Shown one piece after another: positions 52,074 to 61,538 of a stretch of 64,000 nt of DNA; position 1 is the stretch's first letter; every line of letters begins with the position of its first letter. The position numbers were made by a program, and so were the translations under genes. The DNA is from Protoeuglena noctilucae (Eukaryota). The notes beneath the pieces are model-generated. The model was not told the DNA's origin. It was given only the letters and a program-made list of their open reading frames with translations, and ran no database searches. The stretch lies in NCBI GenBank assembly GCA_958009085.1, contig OY253669.1, forward strand, positions 558,001 to 622,000, given 5' to 3'.

Positions 52074-53398
52074 ATGCTTGGCCTCGCCTCCAGGGCCTCG
52101 CTGGCCACGCAGGCTCCCTCGGCCGAGCCCGCGCGAAGGGAAGCATTGCGATGTGCGGCGATCGGCAAGCATGAGGTGGGAGGCGGGGCCATCTGGGCCA
52201 CGGACGCCTTTCGGCGTTTCCCGTCGATCCTTTTCCGCGGGGCCGACTTTGTTCGACGTCCCGAATCAGTACTCGCCTTATTTCGATCGTTTTAGCCGCG
52301 ATGGTCGAGCGGGGGTTGCGCGGAGGAGGCTGTTGGGGCTGCAGCGCTGGTGCCCTGGGAAAATCGGTCCTGATGGAAGCCAGCACCGCGTCGACCGGCG
52401 TGGAGGGTCGCGTCGCCGGCATGACAGTCGTCGGATTCTCCGATGCGACTTGGGATGCCGCGCAGCGACGGATGTGGGTCTCGATCGGACCCTGAGGGCG
52501 AGCCTCCGCGTTCTGTGCGCTTGCAGGAGCCCTCGGCGCTGCAGACGATAGGGAAGCGGCTAAGCAGTCTCGCGCTGTCGGGCCTTCTGGCGTTCGCCCC
52601 TCTCAGCCCCGCGGTGGCCTCGGAGTTTGACGTCCTGGCTGACGATGTGCCGGCAGGCTACCTCATCGACGATGCGGGAATCCTGAACGCCGTCACAAAG
52701 GGCCAGATCAACGCGGAGCTTAAGAGCCTGGAGAATGCCACGGGTGACGCCCAGGCCTTCCTGGGGAGCGCGCGCGAGGGTGCACACAGCACCGCCCTTG
52801 CGGCCCACACTGGGCGCCAGTCCCCGCGCGCAGGGTACAAGGTGGTGGTCATTACGCTGCGCAAGCTGGAGTACGACCCGGACGCCTTCTCGTTCGCGGA
52901 CAAGATCGTGGAGAAGTGGTACCCGACGGCTGAGCTGGGGGACAAGAAGGGGGTGCTGCTGGTCGTCACGGCGGCCAAGGAGGGCGCAGTCTCGGGGGGC
53001 CCTAGCTTCATGAACACGATTGGGGACAACCTCATCGACGGCATCGTCAATGACAACATCCCCATTTTCTCAGGCGAGGAGGATGCATGTGGCGGCGGAC
53101 CACGCGCCTCCTGATCGGGTGCTCTTCGTGCAGCCTCACCCCCGCCCCCCTCCACCCCGCAGAGGAGAAGTACAACGAGGCGGTCACGTCGTCCCTGCGC
53201 CGCATCGAGGCCGTCCTCCAGGGAAAGGAGGACCCGGGTGGGCCGGAGCGCAAGGACAACACGCGGCGCCGGACGTACCGGACGAAGGAGGAGACGGACA
53301 AGTCCAAGACGGTCACGACGACCGTCGTCGCCACGCTGCTGCTCATCGCGTTCGTGGTGCCCATGCTGCAGTTCTATGGATATGTCTCCCGTGACTGA
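52074..53398 (+). CDS. TLP18.3: Thylakoid lumen TPM-domain protein TLP18.3/Psb32
   Basis: Transit peptide MLGLASRASLATQ.., lumen signal ..SPAVA-SEFDVL, YLIDDAGIL, DAFSFADKIVEKWYPT, EEKYNEAV, C-terminal LLLIAFVVPMLQFYGY. Confidence 0.92.
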
Positions 53399-53496
53399 GG
53401 GGGGTGTGCTGCAGGTGACTGGGTCCGCCCCGGTAGTTGAGAACCGCTGGCAGACGCGCGACCCCTTCAACGCGAGCCCGCACCATGCCGTAACAT

Positions 53497-55082
53497 TCAC
53501 GCGAGCGCCCTCAACAGATAGCTGACCAAGTCCCGCACCACGACCACGCTGAGGCTGTTCCCCAGGAGAGCGTACTGCTGCCACACCGTCACCTCCTGCG
53601 GACGGCGAACACAGCTCGATGCACGGCCAAGCACACTGCCATGCCTGCTGACGCTTGTTTGCGTACATGACACACCTCCGGGAACGAGAAGGACGGTGGG
53701 AAACCGTGGAGGTTGGCAATTTCCCGAGGGGAAAAGAAGCGCAGCTTCAGAGCGCTGAGCGTGTCCGGTGTGTGGTAGGGGATTTGTTGCGCGTCGCCCG
53801 CAGATGCAGGCCCCTCTCCGTTGGCCGCCCACGGAGGCGTTTGCCACGACCCGGGGATGCCCAGGGCCGAGAGCTGATCCTCGGCACCCGCACAGGTGGC
53901 CAGCAGAGAACCGGTCCCGCGAATGTACCGCCCGTAGCCTTTGGTGAAGCAGCAGCAACGACCTGCGCCTGCCGTGGTAATGTCCATGCTTCCGCGGAGC
54001 ATCCGCAGCGGCACTGCCAGCGAAGGGGGGTCCCCGGTCGCCGACGACGAATCGGGTCGACTGCCGTGGTCCTCGCACAAGTAGTCCGACAGGGGCCGTA
54101 CCGACATCGCCTGCAGTTCCGAGGACGGGGTGGCACTTGCGCTACCCTTTCACATACAGGGCCCGGTGCCACGAGCAGGACGCACCTCGCTGGAGCAAGG
54201 CTCGCAGCCGGCAGACTGGAGCAGCCGAGCAGGGGAGCAGGTGCAGGGCCTCCCCATCGACGTGGCGGGCTGTGGGAAGGGCTTCTTCGACGCAAGCAAA
54301 AAGTAACGGGGGCGGGAATATGGCACTCCATACTGCGAAAGTGAACGCACACCAGGGCTCGGCACCTCTCAGCGCACTCTCCATCCCCACACAAGGCGGC
54401 GCCCCCCACCTGTGTCGGCGTCAGCACGAAATCCTGGATGTGATACCCACAGGCTTGAAGAACTTCCTCCAGCAGAACGCTGCGAAACAGAAACCTCTCG
54501 CCCTTGCGTGGCACAATCAGGTCAGTGCCTCCTGTCCTTCAAACATATGCGCACAGTCTGCCTGAAGCATTTCCACGCGCCTTGTCTGCGAGGCCTCGAA
54601 CCCCACGACGTTCTCGAGCAGCAGACCTTGGGGCTGGAGGTTGGGCCGCATTTTCTGCAGCTCGTCCATGAGGGACAGGAAGCCCTCGGCCCTCGCGTCG
54701 CCCGACCCTTTCCTGGAGCCGAGGTCGGGGCCCATGGATGCCGCCCGTGCGCCGCAAAGCCGTGCTCGCTCTCTACGCCATGTCTGCGCCCAACCCATCC
54801 TCGCCTGTGGCCGTTCCGGCTGTAGGGCTGGCACGGGGGACTCATCAGCCATATCGTCGCCCCAAACTTCTCGAGGTCGTCGGCAGTGAGCGACTCGCAG
54901 CTTCTTTGACAAGGTCGGTCTCCAAAATTGTGCTCGTAGGTCGCGTTGGCGACCTCGTTTACGTCGAACGCCGCCACGGTCGATACACGCCCTTGCGCCA
55001 CACCCTCCGCGGCGCCCTCCAGCGCAAACCGCAGTCCCCCGATCCCACTGAAGAGCTCTAGCGCAACCACCGGAGTTGCCAT
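53497..55082 (-). CDS. DNMT2: tRNA (cytosine-38-C5) methyltransferase DNMT2/TRDMT1
   Basis: Motifs LELFSGIGG, SPPCQPY, LLENVVGF, PYSRPRYF, DNMT2-specific CFTKGY, LRFFSPREIANLHGFP and LLGNSLSV. ATG at 55082-55080. Confidence 0.95.
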
Positions 55083-55508
55083 CACTCACGCATGGGGTTC
55101 TCGTAGATGTTCCTCCGGAAAAAATCCCGCAAGTGCTTCTTCGCGAAATCGTAGTAGGCCTCCTCGATGAGCACGCGCACCTTGTCGTCCTCGCCCCAAT
55201 CCAGTTCCCCGAGCTTTCTGAGGCGCGACAGAGTGCAGCGTTTGGGCGCCATGAATCTCGTCCCACTCCAAGCGCGCAGCTCTCCCCTGCGCGCCTCCGC
55301 GCGCGATAGCCCTTCCCCCGCGTACCGGTGAAGAAACTTGCGTCCCTCCGTCTGCTGGTCGTCCAAATACTCCAGAAATGCCTTTGTCGCCTCGTCGCAC
55401 TCTGCGAGGACGCCGATGGGCGTGGTGGGCGCAGCCGCGCTCGGCACGGCTTCGCGTCGCGCTCACGGTCCTACCTAGCAAGACCAAGCGTGTTGTCCGC
55501 GTCGGCAT
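55082..55508 (-). CDS. TFB5: TFIIH subunit p8 (Tfb5/GTF2H5, REX1-S-like), 81 aa
   Basis: Three exons give MPTRTTRLVLLECDEATKAFLEYLDDQQTEGRKFLHRKL...LRDFFRRNIYENPMRE*, matching the Tfb5 pattern VLIECDPAMKQFLLYLD..GKKFI. Stop TGA at 55084-55082. Confidence 0.85.
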
Positions 55509-55928
55509 GACCGTGGGCTATCCGAAAACCGCTCAAAAGCTCTCTCCACGTTTGCGCTGCTCCTTGAAAGCTATCGCCCGCTTTGACGTCGATTACCGCG
55601 AGATGTGGCACACCAGAAGAGCGGCACGAAGAGTGTGTCACCATCGGGGGGCGCCGGGGAAGGGTGAAGGTCCTTTGCCATTGGTACTGGCACATGCTGA
55701 ACCGGGTCGCACCGCCAGTCAGTGCTGGTCCGACGGGGTCCTACGCATTCAACGAAGGGAAGTGGCTTGGACAGATCTCGTGCTGCATCGCGCCACCCAA
55801 ACCGGCTTTGGCTCGCATCTATGTCAGGGCGCAGACCGCGTCCCTGCGTGGCCCTGCGGTGATGATCACATGGCACCCATCCTCTACAGGATGTGGGAAG
55901 TCGTCCCGGCTTCGGAGGCAGACCGACG

Positions 55929-57748
55929 CTACCTCGTCCCCAGAGAGAAGCCTGCGATCCAATGGGCAGATGCTGGGCGCGAGTCGGTGCACGGGCTGCC
56001 CACGGCGCATGAACATCGCCAGAGGTTGCCAGCAGGGGCAAGTGCGCTCACCTTGCAGGCTCGGGTCGATCAACGACTGGCTCATGGATGACCGCCGGCG
56101 CTTGGATGCCAGAGCGGGCGGGGGGATGCCCATGCGGTCTCTGCGTGTCGCAGCCGATGGCGCCGGCTGTGCGGTACGACCCTGGCTGCGCCAGCACCAG
56201 GTCCGTGCGCATCCACAGCACTGCGCGCCCCGTTCGCCCAGCAACTTGCCTGATGGGCGTCGTGCGGTCGCTGAAGACAGGGCTGGCGAGCTCCGAGTGC
56301 CCCGAGTGCATCTCCGCCTTGGCTATCTGCACCGCTGACCAGGGACTGAGCTGGGACGTTCCGTTGCTGAAGTGCCTCGACTGCATGAGGGGCCCCGTCC
56401 GCGGTGCACTCTGGTGCAGGACCTGGGGTCAAGCGGAGGACGGCCATGTCACAGGGGACAGCTGCTCCAGAGTCTATCGCTATCGAGCCTATCGCTCACC
56501 AGCTGGTGCCCACCCGGCACCGACGCGTTGCCAGCCCCGGGGCCCCTCGAGCTCCCCCCCATGAGCTGCTGGTTCAACTGGGAGATCTGCGTCCTGCGCA
56601 CAGCACGCGATGACGTGTTCAGCTTGTTGCTGGCGCGGCCGCAGTCTCGCCTGGAGCCACCGCGCACTCGGCGCATAAGTCGTCACACCTGAGCTGCTGG
56701 TTCTCCTGCCGCAGACTCCTGACTTCCCTGTGGGGCAGAGCCAGCGCCACGCTGTCGTGCATGTCTCCAGACGCGAGGCATAGCTGCACTCGACCAACCC
56801 CGGACCTCGCCACGACCTGCTGCTTACCCAGATCGGTGCGAGTACTGCACGGCCATCTCCTGCTCTTTGCGCTCCTGCTGCACCATGGCCTCCTCCATCT
56901 CCGCCAGCTTGCGCTTGTAGCGGTGGTTCTCCTCGTTCAGCTTGCGCAGCTTGTCCTTCGCCTCGGTGAACACGCTCTGGAGCTTCTGCTTGATCTTCTC
57001 CTCCCTCTGCGACCAAAAGCCACAGAAGCCACCACCCTTCCCACTGGCAGCTGCGCAACAGGGCACCTCACCCGTCCGTGCCACGGCTGCACGTCACGCT
57101 GCCAAGCAGGTCGGTCGCACCTTGAGACTGACGAGCTCCTGCTGCGAGTCGTAGAAGTCGATTGCGGCCAGGGCGCAGTTCAGGATGGTCTCGGGGACCT
57201 GCACTGGCCCAGACGCGGGCAGATATATCCATGGCTGGGCCAGCAAGACGAGTGAAGACTGCGCTCAGGTCACGAGCGTCTCACCTGGCCGAAGAGGCAC
57301 GACTGGAGGTTCTCAGAAGGCTGCTGAAGGACATGCACCAGGCGCACATTGGACTTCGTCAGGGGCTGCTCGCAGACAGGGCACGCCGGCGAGTCCTCGA
57401 ACGTTTTCTCCGCGCAGGGGACGCCTGCAAGCGCCGTTAAGAGCGTTGTGGGGCGATGAGCCCACCAGGTGCTGCTACCCGCACGCTCAGCCCCTAGCGC
57501 GCCCTCTTGAGCCCCGCATCTCACAGAGCAGGTGCCCGCAGCTCGTAGCGATTGTCTTGGTCCCCTCGGAGAAGGCCGTCCAGCATTTATTGCACTGCGA
57601 TGGCTAGGATTTGCTGCGGTCAACCGCTGAAGACCAGTGCTGGGGCTGGCGGGCCCAGCCGTGCCAACGCCCGCGAGATCCGGTCTGACGTCGCAGCTCC
57701 GCAAACAGACACACGCGGGTTACACGGCGCACCCGCGCGCACCTTCAT
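55929..57748 (-). CDS. HEI10: Meiotic crossover RING E3 ligase HEI10/CCNB1IP1
   Basis: MK|CNKCWTAF..IATSCGHLLC|..CPVCEQPLTKS..PETILNCALAAIDFYDSQQEL followed by a coiled coil. The 3' exons are approximate. Confidence 0.85.
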
Positions 57749-57999: not shown

Positions 58000-60711
58000 A
58001 TGTCCAGCCTGGCGTCGGTCTCGTTGGCCGTCGCGGCCCCCGCGTGGGCCGGCCGCAGGCCTGCTGCGTCGGTGGGAGCGCCCCGCTCGCAGGCCGTGGC
58101 CTCCCTGCTTTTGCATTCCCATTTGGACGTGTATGGCCTTCACCGCACGCCTCGGGCCGCGGTTGTCGCGTCGGCACAGGCAACGAAGGGTGAGCCGCCG
58201 GCTGGCGACGGGCTCCCTGGCAATGTCCGCGGAATCGGGCCACATCACGGTCATTTATAAAGTATGACGTCAGCTGGCGCAATCACATGTGAAGCATGCG
58301 GTGCTCGGGGTGCGAGGTGTGAGCTTTCCATGCTTCATCCGCTGCACGGGGGCCCTCCGGCGTGACGGTGCGACGACACGACTAACTGCAGCATTCACAA
58401 TGAGCGTGTAAAGATGTACAGTCTGTGTTTGGCAATTTCTGGGGCCGTCTCTCCGCGGCCCGTCCCTTGCGGGCACTCACGGACGCCTTTGGTGCCGTCC
58501 CGATTGCAGAGAAGGTGGACAAGCTTGTCGTCCAGCCAATTCAGAAGATCGAGGGGCACGTGAAGCTCCCGGGTTCCAAGTCCCTGTCGAATCGGTGCGT
58601 GGGCCGCCTTCCCTCGCCCCAGCTGCCGCAGCAGGAGCTTGTGCGCGCCGCGCATCACCGGGCTCTTACTGCGTCGTCGCCCTCAGCATCCTTCTTCTCG
58701 CTGCGCTGGCGGAGGGCACGACGACCGTGGAGAACCTGTTGGACTCCGACGACATCAGGTGACCAAGGGGAGGGCCACAGCCTGCACCAGCCTGGCTCTG
58801 TCAACCTGCTCCGACGCTGGCCAAGGGCGATATCCTGGGAGCCTGCTGCCGATGGAGAGCCTATGAAGCCTTCTGTTGCAGGTACATGGTGGGCGCCTTG
58901 AAGGACCTGGGGGTCGCAGTGGAGGAGGACTGGGCCAACAGCCGCATGGTCGTGCACGGTTGCGGGGGCACGTTCCCAGCCAAGGCGAGGCCTGCAGCTG
59001 ATGCGTAAGATGTGCTGACCAGCGCGCAGTTCCGTAGCCAAGCGTCCGCGCCGTGGCCTGGGATTTAGAACGACCCTTCCCCTCGGCGAGCCACAGGGTG
59101 CGGAGCTCTTCCTGGGGAATGCAGGCACTGCCATGCGGCCCCTCTGCGCGGCGGTGGCCGCGGCCGGAGAGGGCGTCTTCGTGCTGGACGGCGTGCAGCG
59201 CATGCGGGAGCGTCCCATCCAGGACCTGGTGGACGGCCTGGTGCAGCTGGGGGTCGAGGCGGAGTGCACGATGGGCACGGGATGCCCGCCCGTCCGCGTG
59301 GCGGCGCGGGGCCTGCCCACGGGGCGGGTGCAGCTGAAGGGTTCGGTGTCCTCGCAGTACTTGACGGGTGAGGGGCATGCCTAAGTTTTGTGGAGTCACT
59401 GGCATCGGCGAAGATGATGCACAAGCGTTGTCCCTTCTCTCGCAGCGCTGCTGATGGCGGCGCCGCTCTCCAAGGGCGACGAGGGCATCGAGATCGTCAT
59501 CACCGGTGAGCCATGCTGTTGGCCCCGCCGTGTGCCGGGAGCGGAGCAGACGTGCTGGCTGGCGCTCGGGATTCCAGCGGCTCGGTCCCTCCCGCCCACA
59601 GACGAACTTGTTTCCCAGCCGTACGTGGACATGACGATAAAGCTCATGGAGCGCTTTGGGTGAGGAAGGATGGGTGTGGATGTGAACGGCCAATTGCAAC
59701 CACGATGCGCGGGCCCCCGAACGACAGTCTTTCCCCGGTCCGCGCCTCAGGGTGAAAGTGGAACGCCTTGACGGCTTGCAGCACCTTCGCGTGCCCGGCA
59801 ACCAACGCTACGTGAGCCCCGGCACTGCGTACGTGGAGGGCGACGCCTCCAGGCAAGGCGCTGTCCTAGCTTGCGCGCCTGTGCGTCTGCTCAGCCCCCA
59901 TCCGCCGCGTCCATAATCCGCCGCGAGTCGCTCGCAGCGCTTCTTACTTCCTGGCCGGGGCGACCATCACGGGCGGCACGGTCACGGTCGAGGGCTGCGG
60001 CTCCGACTCGCTCCAGGGCGACGTCCGCTTCGCCGAGGTCATGGGTCTCATGGGGGCGCGGGTGGAGTGGCAGCCGTACGCCATCACCATCACGGGGCCC
60101 TCCGCGTTTGGGGAGAAGCTCAAGGCCGTGGACCACAACTGCAACGACATCCCAGACGCAGCAATGACCCTCGCAGTCGCGGCGCTCTTCGCGGAGGGCG
60201 TCACGACAATCCGGGACGTGTACAACTGGCGCGTCAAGGAGACGGAGGTGAGGGCCAGGGACGGACGACGCGTCGCGCGCCGTGGCTCTGTTCAAGAGAG
60301 GGTGCAACTACTGCTTCCCCCACGCGCCACTTGTTTACAGCGCATGAAGGCCATTGTGAACGAGCTGACGCGCCTGGGGATCAAGGTCACGGAGGGCCAC
60401 GACTTCTGTGTGGTCGAGGGCGCGGGAGGGAAGATCAAGGCCGGTGTCGAGGCGAGGGGATGCCGCGAGTCGCTAATGTCGGGGCAGCCACAGTGCTCTA
60501 CGAACCCTCTTTCTTCGAGGTTTCCGGCAAGACACAAAGGCAGCTGCCCCTGCCTCTTGCGCAGATCGAGACCTATGACGACCACCGCATGGCCATGGCG
60601 TTCGCGCTGGCGGCGTGCTCGGGGACTGCGGTCACCATCCTGGACCCGGGCTGCACCCGCAAGACCTTCCCGACGTACTGGGACGTGCTCCAGTCCGTCG
60701 CCAAGCACTGA
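58000..60711 (+). CDS. EPSPS: Plastid-targeted class I EPSP synthase
   Basis: [77 protein letters not shown]. Ten introns. Confidence 0.97.
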
Positions 60712-60756
60712 CGCGTGTCGGATGACTGTCGGAATATGCGTTGAATCCAGTGGTTC

Positions 60757-61538
60757 TCAGCCCCCACCCGCCTCACTCCCTCGAGCGAGAATCCACTCCC
60801 ACACTGCCGGATCGACTGGCGTGACGGACTGCCGCGGGCGCCGTATCTGCGGGCACCGGCAGGCAGGGGCCTCGACGGCCGCGTGGCCAGGGGCGGTCGC
60901 GCGAGCTGCAGCAGATTCTCGCCAGAAAGAAGTCACGGAGCTGCGGGGGCGCGTCCTCTTGGCTGGCGGCCTGCTTGATGTCCTGAAGCGTCACCGGCCG
61001 CGGGAGTCGTCGCACAAACGTGACATCCACCGCGACCCATCTTGGCTTCTCGCGCGTGGACTTGGGGTCAAAGTACTTGTGACCTTCTTCGAACTGGGTG
61101 GGATCGGGGTACGCCTCGCGGGCTACCGTGCAGACGCCCACAACGGCCGGCACCTTGCAGCTGCTGCGCGCGAGGAGAGAACCGGGCTGCACGTGGATGC
61201 CGCACAGCCGCCTCGGCGCCTCCATGCGATGCACGTGAGGAACGCGCACGACACCTGTGGTAGAACAGCGCGTGGTCGCCAATGCGCATAGCCTTCAGGA
61301 CGTTTTTTGCCACGTGATTGCGCACCCCTTCCCACACGCCGCCCCCCTCGCCCCGCTCGAGGTCTTCTATGCTGTACTCGTCTGGCTCGCTCTGCGGGCA
61401 TCGTCTGAAAAGCCTCAGAGATCGCTCCCACGTATGAAAACCCATCGGGTCTGCACTCGCCTTGAGCAGGAACAGCGATGCTCTGTCATCAACGCTCCCC
61501 ACGCTCTGCGGCGCCTCGCGTTTCCGCTTGATGCCCAT
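60757..61538 (-). CDS. EVE-domain protein (THYN1-like)
   Basis: [68 protein letters not shown]. Confidence 0.92.

Follow-up and report, generated by a model that had tools for sequence, protein, structure and literature searches.

Gene content and splicing of the locus

We analysed a window of 64,000 nucleotides (nt) of Protoeuglena noctilucae DNA (assembly GCA_958009085.1, contig OY253669.1, positions 558,001 to 622,000), whose minus strand carries two adjacent genes: a first open reading frame (ORF) for TFB5 and a second for DNMT2, the two sharing one base, at which the TFB5 stop codon ends and the DNMT2 start codon begins. RNA contigs run unspliced across this junction, and it is probable, though not proven, that both coding regions lie on one bicistronic nuclear mRNA. 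All positions given below are those of the window.

When the unspliced ORFs of the window were compared with Pfam, matches to DNA_methylase (PF00145, E 6.8e-13) and Tfb5 (PF06331, E 3.9e-6) were obtained. Two proteins in the databases, P0226 and P0003, which derive from RNA contigs of this organism, were examined as well. P0226 scored 33.2 bits against Tfb5 (PF06331; cut-off 23.5) over profile positions 7-66 of 67, and it matched human TFIIH subunit 5 (GTF2H5) with an E of 2.4e-4. P0003 matched DNA_methylase with an E of 1.2e-31; like P0226 against Tfb5, it lay above the family threshold. DNMT2 enzymes took all of its top five places among solved structures (human E 6e-56; S. pombe 1e-40), and M.HhaI scored 5e-11; residue 4 of P0003 aligned with residue 5 of human DNMT2, so that the two proteins start level. 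The modelled DNMT2 contained FSGIGG at residue 11, PPCQP at 82, ENV at 126, CFTKGYG at 263, RFFSPREIANL at 333 and GNSLSV at 366, all of which were invariant in the DNMT2 alignment (A1); these we take to be the C5-methyltransferase motifs I, IV (PPCQ, with the catalytic cysteine), VI (ENV), IX and X together with the DNMT2-type CFTxxY. On this sequence evidence the first ORF is firmly assigned to TFB5/TTDA, a TFIIH subunit, and the second, equally firmly, to DNMT2/TRDMT1, a predicted tRNA cytosine-5 methyltransferase (C38 of tRNA-Asp). Relatives of TFB5 were scarce, with only two proteins among seven candidates, both from this organism.

The exons were joined from the joints observed in RNA contigs, and ambiguities of 1 nt in the joints were resolved by the splice-site ends. 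The joined exons encode a TFB5 of 81 amino acids (three exons) and a DNMT2 of 386 amino acids (six exons) with no frame problem; the two ORFs measure 246 and 1161 nt and overlap by 1 nt, and no third ORF was found between or after them in the transcript model. The model agrees with P0003 over 354 of 354 residues (the first 354 of DNMT2), up to a retained intron, and with P0226 over the last 70 residues of TFB5, and both proteins depart from it only at retained introns. The features of the model, together with the untranslated regions (UTRs), are as follows.

55509..55610, minus strand: putative 5' UTR of the common transcript; RNA contigs extend to 55608-55611 in three runs, which gives the extent of cover and not a mapped start site
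55475..55508, minus strand: TFB5 exon 1, coding part, ATG at 55508-55506; joint 55401>55475 in 3/3 RNA runs and not in DNA run X7
55402..55474, minus strand: TFB5 intron 1, 73 nt, GT-AG, sometimes retained; RNA joint, with unspliced contigs X2 record 10 and X4 record 15, and P0226 reading through
55326..55401, minus strand: TFB5 exon 2, the most conserved Tfb5 segment, by alignment to human GTF2H5 residues 7-39
55218..55325, minus strand: TFB5 intron 2, 108 nt, GT-AG; joint in 3/3 RNA runs and in no DNA contig
54805..55217, minus strand: common exon, made of TFB5 exon 3 (55217-55082, including the stop) and DNMT2 exon 1 (55082-54805); X1 record 4, X2 record 9, X4 record 14
55080..55084, minus strand: TGATG stop-start overlap; TFB5 TGA at 55084-55082, DNMT2 ATG at 55082-55080, common base 55082
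54713..54804, minus strand: DNMT2 intron 1, 92 nt, GC-AG; joint in 3/3 RNA runs, ends resolved by a 1-nt shift, confirmed by P0003
54581..54712, minus strand: DNMT2 exon 2, motif VI (ENV); RNA contigs and model
54480..54580, minus strand: DNMT2 intron 2, 101 nt, GC-AG; RNA joints
54410..54479, minus strand: DNMT2 exon 3; RNA contigs and model
54333..54409, minus strand: DNMT2 intron 3, 77 nt, GT-AG; RNA joints
54186..54332, minus strand: DNMT2 exon 4; RNA contigs and model
54111..54185, minus strand: DNMT2 intron 4, 75 nt, GT-AG; RNA joints
53676..54110, minus strand: DNMT2 exon 5, CFTKGYG motif and motif IX; RNA contigs and model
53596..53675, minus strand: DNMT2 intron 5, 80 nt, GT-AG, sometimes retained; joint in 3/3 RNA runs, unspliced in X1 record 3 and X2 record 7, and P0003 reading through
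53497..53595, minus strand: DNMT2 exon 6, coding part, motif X (GNSLSV), stop TGA at 53499-53497; model
53452..53496, minus strand: short 3' UTR, overlapping the 3' end of a convergent plus-strand TPM-domain gene; X4 record 13 extends to 53452

Five of the seven introns are GT-AG and two are GC-AG (54713-54804 and 54480-54580), a high share of RNA-confirmed GC-AG introns; all seven are short (73-108 nt). Forms retaining 55402-55474 and 53596-53675 exist beside the spliced ones, as seen in the RNA contigs, P0226 and P0003, and keeping the 73-nt TFB5 intron 1 changes the TFB5 frame.

RNA cover of the junction

RNA contigs of three marine metatranscriptome runs (X1, X2 and X4; one study) and the contigs of DNA run X7 were mapped on 52900-56400. 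Among the 14 runs listed, four RNA runs, from one study, contained 55-62% of the sampled words, and the four 'organism A' runs contained all of them. The locus was present in the marine metatranscriptomes at an identity of at least 99%. Seven joints were observed within it, each in all three RNA runs and in none of the contigs of the DNA run. The stretch 54804-55217 was covered unbroken, and unspliced across the junction, in 3/3 RNA runs (X1 record 4, X2 record 9 and X4 record 14), and a single spliced contig of 1276 nt (X1 record 4), extending from 53675 to 55403, connected TFB5 exon 2 with DNMT2 exon 5. The contigs of the three RNA runs showed no joint at the junction, and no loose ends were listed for them; a cDNA splicing TFB5 in frame to DNMT2, on whose absence the earlier note had made its proposal of a bicistronic mRNA depend, was not present among them. 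The bins at 55708-56400 had no RNA cover, which was not counted as evidence for a start site or for an empty promoter region. Contig depths differed between the 5' and 3' parts of the locus and were not used, as they cannot rank parts of a gene.

Sequence of the stop-start junction

Around the junction the minus strand reads CCC ATG CGT GAG TGA TG GCA ACT, in which the DNMT2 frame is -1 relative to TFB5. A TGA at 55088-55086 lies in the DNMT2 frame, two codons 5' of the DNMT2 ATG, and the next in-frame ATG, at 54845, would give a protein lacking the S-adenosylmethionine-binding motif I; this leaves the ATG at 55082 as the one DNMT2 start that can work. On the TFB5 side, an in-frame TAG is located three codons 5' of the start ATG on the minus strand, and the 102 nt preceding that ATG, which form the putative 5' UTR, contain no ATG at all.

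In the spliced model only two ATGs precede that of DNMT2, namely the TFB5 start ACGGTCATGC and one internal ATG AACCCCATGC. The former has G at -3 and C at +4. The latter is in frame with TFB5 and has a poor context, with a pyrimidine (C) at -3 and C at +4, and it opens an ORF of three codons which is closed by TFB5's own TGA. The DNMT2 ATG has G at both -3 and +4. It was also observed that GTGAGT at 55089-55084 on the minus strand, which resembles the consensus of a 5' splice site, coincides exactly with the point where the TFB5 stop meets the DNMT2 start.

These results bear out much of what the earlier note had read from the letters. The TGATG overlap with its common base was placed exactly, the outer limits are right as well (the TFB5 ATG opens at 55508, and the DNMT2 stop closes at 53497), and the two ATGs of spliced TFB5, the weak context of the internal one and the G residues around the DNMT2 ATG recur in the RNA-based model. 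The two family assignments were upheld by the Pfam and solved-structure matches. The argument that the TGA at 55088-55086 rules out a frameshift fusion also holds, and the RNA contigs exclude a fusion by splicing in addition.

Proposed translation of the two cistrons

From the layout, the splice pattern, the two protein families and the continuous RNA across the junction, all of which are observed, we infer one nuclear bicistronic mRNA from which DNMT2 is translated mainly by leaky scanning, a reading that we hold to be reasonably probable. An mRNA of about 1.55 kb would carry two complete and unrelated coding regions, the 81-codon TFB5 and the 386-codon DNMT2, the second starting on the last base of the stop of the first. 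A scanning 40S ribosomal subunit would either initiate at the TFB5 AUG or bypass it; a bypassing subunit would meet one further AUG only, that of the three-codon ORF in poor context, which ends at the same UGA, and would then initiate at the DNMT2 AUG. Such leaky scanning would fix a low ratio of DNMT2 to TFB5, and reinitiation after the three-codon mini-ORF or after TFB5 may contribute a little. The ORF sizes of 246 and 1161 nt match a published class of bicistrons, those of Auxenochlorella protothecoides, with median ORF sizes of 291 and 1185 nt in the available part of that work (PMC11291117), and this match was counted in favour of the proposal.

Search for the pairing in relatives and other opposing results

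Several results weigh against this proposal. Through the DNMT2 alignment, 80 metagenome loci were obtained, the organism's own 1596-nt P0003 contig not being among them. Forty-two of these, with a match of at least 900 nt or an identity of at least 40%, were chosen for a Pfam scan of upstream ORFs on the same strand, and the remaining 38 were mostly short matches of 32-37% identity. After L008 and L065 (no upstream sequence) and L067 (same coordinates and ORFs as L066) had been left out, the scan covered 287 ORFs at 39 loci, 10 of which had less than 400 nt of upstream sequence; as a control of the method, the window's own TFB5 was found in unspliced DNA. Tfb5 was found upstream of DNMT2 in 0 of these 39 loci. 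A tblastn search of all 80 loci with the modelled TFB5 gave a single match, at E 7.2, which is noise. A synteny search had been put forward in the earlier note; among the loci searched here, the TFB5-DNMT2 pairing has to date been seen in this organism alone.

L004, whose DNMT2 was the nearest of the relatives obtained (57% identity in exon 1), has a different upstream neighbour on the same strand, a gene for a pyridoxal phosphate (PLP)-dependent enzyme at 2001-2995 (PALP, E 3e-42), which ends 175 nt before DNMT2 with five ATGs between, so that the TFB5 pairing is not common to this relative. At two other loci, a UPF0020 ORF of at least 214 codons (an RMKL-like RNA methyltransferase; L017:2237-2893 and L018:2261-2917) lies on the same strand as DNMT2 and ends 11 nt before the first in-frame DNMT2 ATG, with 15 ATGs between; because of these two loci, tight spacing alone is no proof of bicistronic translation. 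An internal promoter could account for this layout, and so could splicing that joins the two RNA methyltransferases in one protein.

The RNA evidence has its own limits. Where transcripts overlap, a contig built from short reads simply follows the genome, and therefore such contigs do not prove a single molecule; accordingly, of the earlier note's claim of a bicistronic mRNA, the unspliced passage of RNA across the junction in 3/3 runs stands, but its existence as one molecule is not proven by such contigs. All RNA runs are from one study. Moreover, the longest contig of P0226, at 3219 nt, exceeds the modelled mRNA, and one possible reason is that the assemblies here may merge neighbouring transcripts.

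The start codons weigh on the same side. Within the TFB5 ORF one ATG was observed where 1.9-2.9 would be expected (Poisson P(<=1) of 0.22 or 0.44), and 18% of 5000 draws in a synonymous-codon resampling had at most one ATG. The scarcity of ATGs fits leaky scanning, yet at this single locus it is not significant and lies within chance (P 0.18-0.44); the counts behind the earlier note's argument were right, but the argument is no stronger than that. Furthermore, the TFB5 AUG, with a purine at -3, is not obviously weak.

A second small ORF before DNMT2

The search also revealed 19 G+C-rich marine metagenome loci, forming nine clusters at 85% nucleotide identity, in which a small ORF lies on the same strand directly before DNMT2 (L011, L014, L016, L019, L020, L022-L025, L027-L030, L038, L039, L048, L063, L066 and L067). 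The small ORF has 43-81 codons, and the gap from its end to the DNMT2 ATG is 35-137 nt, except in one cluster (L063/L066/L067), where it overlaps the DNMT2 start as ATGA (L063:2720-2965, with DNMT2 from 2962). It matched the PIGBOS1-like family (PF23670) with E values of 8e-7 to 1e-3 and with scores mostly below the 27-bit cut-off and in one case above it (31.5 bits), and the Atlas lead for this ORF was the PIGBOS1-like family too (score 0.86). No such ORF was detected in the window, where the best E was 0.16, and no work linking PIGBOS1 with algae was found in the literature searched.

Between the two starts there was no ATG in any of the nine clusters, against 15.7 expected in total (joint Poisson P 1.5e-7, whose significance is overstated as the clusters were treated as independent), and equal lengths 3' of the DNMT2 ATG contained eight. 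An ATG-free interval between the starts is a published signature of leaky-scanning bicistrons, according to the available parts of PMC11892635 and PMC11291117. From their sequences, these loci probably represent a second, conserved bicistron of a small ORF and DNMT2. They hint, by analogy, at a raised prior for a leaky-scanning DNMT2 in marine green algae.

As for the host of the window, the exon of 5-enolpyruvylshikimate-3-phosphate (EPSP) synthase at 59870-61291 had its best named matches in Pedinophyceae sp. YPF-701 (90%), Tetradesmus (87%) and Chlamydomonas (84%), and the organism names among the EPSP synthase matches listed (best 120) were all of green algae or plants. This sequence evidence supports a green alga. 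The window has a G+C content of 67.4%. Taking the two kinds of locus together, we tentatively suggest that DNMT2 may recur as a downstream cistron in marine green algae, with an interchangeable small ORF upstream (TFB5 here; PIGBOS1-like in at least nine other marine lineages), an idea that we consider possible but somewhat doubtful. If it is true, short ATG-free first cistrons would be portable platforms for leaky scanning, behind which genes that need low and fixed expression would be swapped during genome compaction.

Alternative explanations

The alternative that survives best, although we consider it unlikely, is that two separate but overlapping mRNAs are made in a very compact genome. 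DNMT2 would then have its start site within TFB5 intron 2 or exon 3, TFB5 would be polyadenylated within DNMT2 exon 1 or intron 1, and the continuous contig would be an assembly of both, since in contigs overlapping transcripts look the same as a single one. The compactness of the genome is in its favour, the stops of DNMT2 and of its convergent neighbour being about 100 nt apart with overlapping RNA contigs, as are the loci at which large, ATG-rich ORFs of the same strand, which scanning could not read through, end 11 nt (L017/L018) or 175 nt (L004) before DNMT2. On the other hand, a promoter and a whole 5' UTR would have to fit in a coding stretch of 136 nt or an intron of 108 nt, and a poly(A) site for TFB5 would be needed inside the DNMT2 coding region. 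No end or loose end of a contig marks such sites, which is a weak argument, and in its size and its almost complete lack of ATGs the first ORF is typical of proven algal bicistrons. TGTAA, AATAAA and TATAA were not found on the minus strand at 53300-55700, and these motifs therefore say nothing on internal end sites.

More doubtful still is a single bicistronic mRNA from which DNMT2 is made mainly by termination-reinitiation at the overlapping UGA/AUG. Stop-start overlaps of the form UGAUG or AUGA serve as termination-reinitiation junctions in viruses (calicivirus, influenza B BM2), where UGGGA is the core of a helper motif within about 100 nt upstream of the stop-start. The overlap in our locus resembles these junctions, and it also ends the three-codon mini-ORF, from which a restart would be easy. 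However, the viral-type helper core (TGGGA) is absent from TFB5 exon 3, its only copies being at 55265 in intron 2 and at 55047, 3' of the junction. The locus further differs from the viral junctions in that no upstream helper motif was found, the gene is a cellular nuclear one and the first ORF is long. Reinitiation after an ORF of 81 codons without a helper element is known to be inefficient, as is also stated in the available part of PMC11291117, and in green algae mutational tests gave results that contradict it.

A single TFB5-DNMT2 fusion protein, made by splicing at GTGAGT, by frameshifting or by readthrough, can be dismissed as extremely improbable: GTGAGT does resemble a 5' splice site, but no joint used it as a donor in the contigs of 3/3 RNA runs, the -1 frame of DNMT2 and the TGA two codons before its ATG leave no room for a frameshift, and P0003 begins where human DNMT2 begins.

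Neighbouring gene

DNMT2 and the plus-strand TPM-domain gene (TPM_phosphatase, TLP18.3-like) converge, with the two stops at 53398-53499. Contigs of the TPM gene extend to 53465-53480 and overlap with those of DNMT2 at 53452-53480. The neighbour has an intron of 89 nt near 53071-53159. In DNA run X7, minor contigs differing in one letter were seen at 53144-53234 at a depth of about 5-6 against about 200, pointing to a variant of low frequency or to a second strain in the library.

Comparison with known systems

The kind of system proposed here, a nuclear bicistronic mRNA read by leaky scanning, is known in green algae, while the gene pair and the change of partner of TFB5 were not in the literature searched. 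What follows is drawn from the available parts of the papers cited. In two green algae, 87 and 173 exclusively polycistronic loci were reported (Gallaher 2021, PMC7896298), and hundreds of such loci have been published for green algae, some with overlapping stop and start codons (PMC7896298, PMC11291117). Leaky scanning was demonstrated by mutation in two green algae, along with a depletion of AUGs in the first ORF (PMC11291117, PMC11892635). The earlier note knew of no description of the pairing, and TFB5 together with DNMT2 was likewise not found in the literature searched; neither 'DNMT' nor 'cytosine' occurred in the available supplements of PMC7896298 or of the Auxenochlorella work (7 files). 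The one work there in which DNMT2, bicistronic mRNAs and algae came up together was an unrelated review.

Like the overlapping-ORF loci of A. protothecoides (PMC11291117), the locus is nuclear and green-algal, has no spacer and has a short first ORF with few AUGs, a number that lies within chance here; unlike them, it involves another gene pair in another lineage, and leaky scanning, shown there by mutation, is proposed here from the sequence and RNA contigs. It would also resemble the CDC26-TTM3 bicistron of land plants and algae, where a small conserved protein is encoded before an enzyme on one mRNA, although the genes differ. If confirmed, the locus would add a pair of well-understood proteins to the nuclear bicistrons and would extend these to a marine green alga that is not among the three species studied so far. 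Set beside the PIGBOS1-like/DNMT2 loci, it would offer a natural comparison for why some enzymes stay behind small ORFs and whether this layout sets dosage. For annotation, the layout carries the warning that automatic gene prediction will either lose one of the two proteins or merge them.

The nearest known system is REX1, which the earlier note had named as an algal bicistron with REX1-S as the upstream ORF and REX1-B as its partner, in agreement with the available part of PMC7896298. In Chlamydomonas reinhardtii, TFB5/REX1-S lies upstream of REX1-B (PF14966), 51 nt apart (Cre16.g683495/Cre16.g683483; PMC7896298). The pair is likewise colinear in Chromochloris, Coccomyxa and Volvox (the same source has blank rows for Micromonas and Ostreococcus), and also in Auxenochlorella, Prototheca and Chlorella, with a spacer of 14 bp in Auxenochlorella (Duenas 2025, PMC11892635). 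Our locus is like REX1 in having a TFB5 homologue as its first cistron (237 nt in REX1 and 246 nt here), a short distance between the ORFs and a green-algal host. Unlike REX1, it has DNMT2 (PF00145) and not REX1-B (PF14966) as its second cistron, the ORFs overlap by one base, and the products TFB5 and DNMT2 are without a known functional link. If the bicistronic mRNA is confirmed, the comparison would mean that TFB5/REX1-S, although conserved as a first cistron, can take another gene as its downstream partner.

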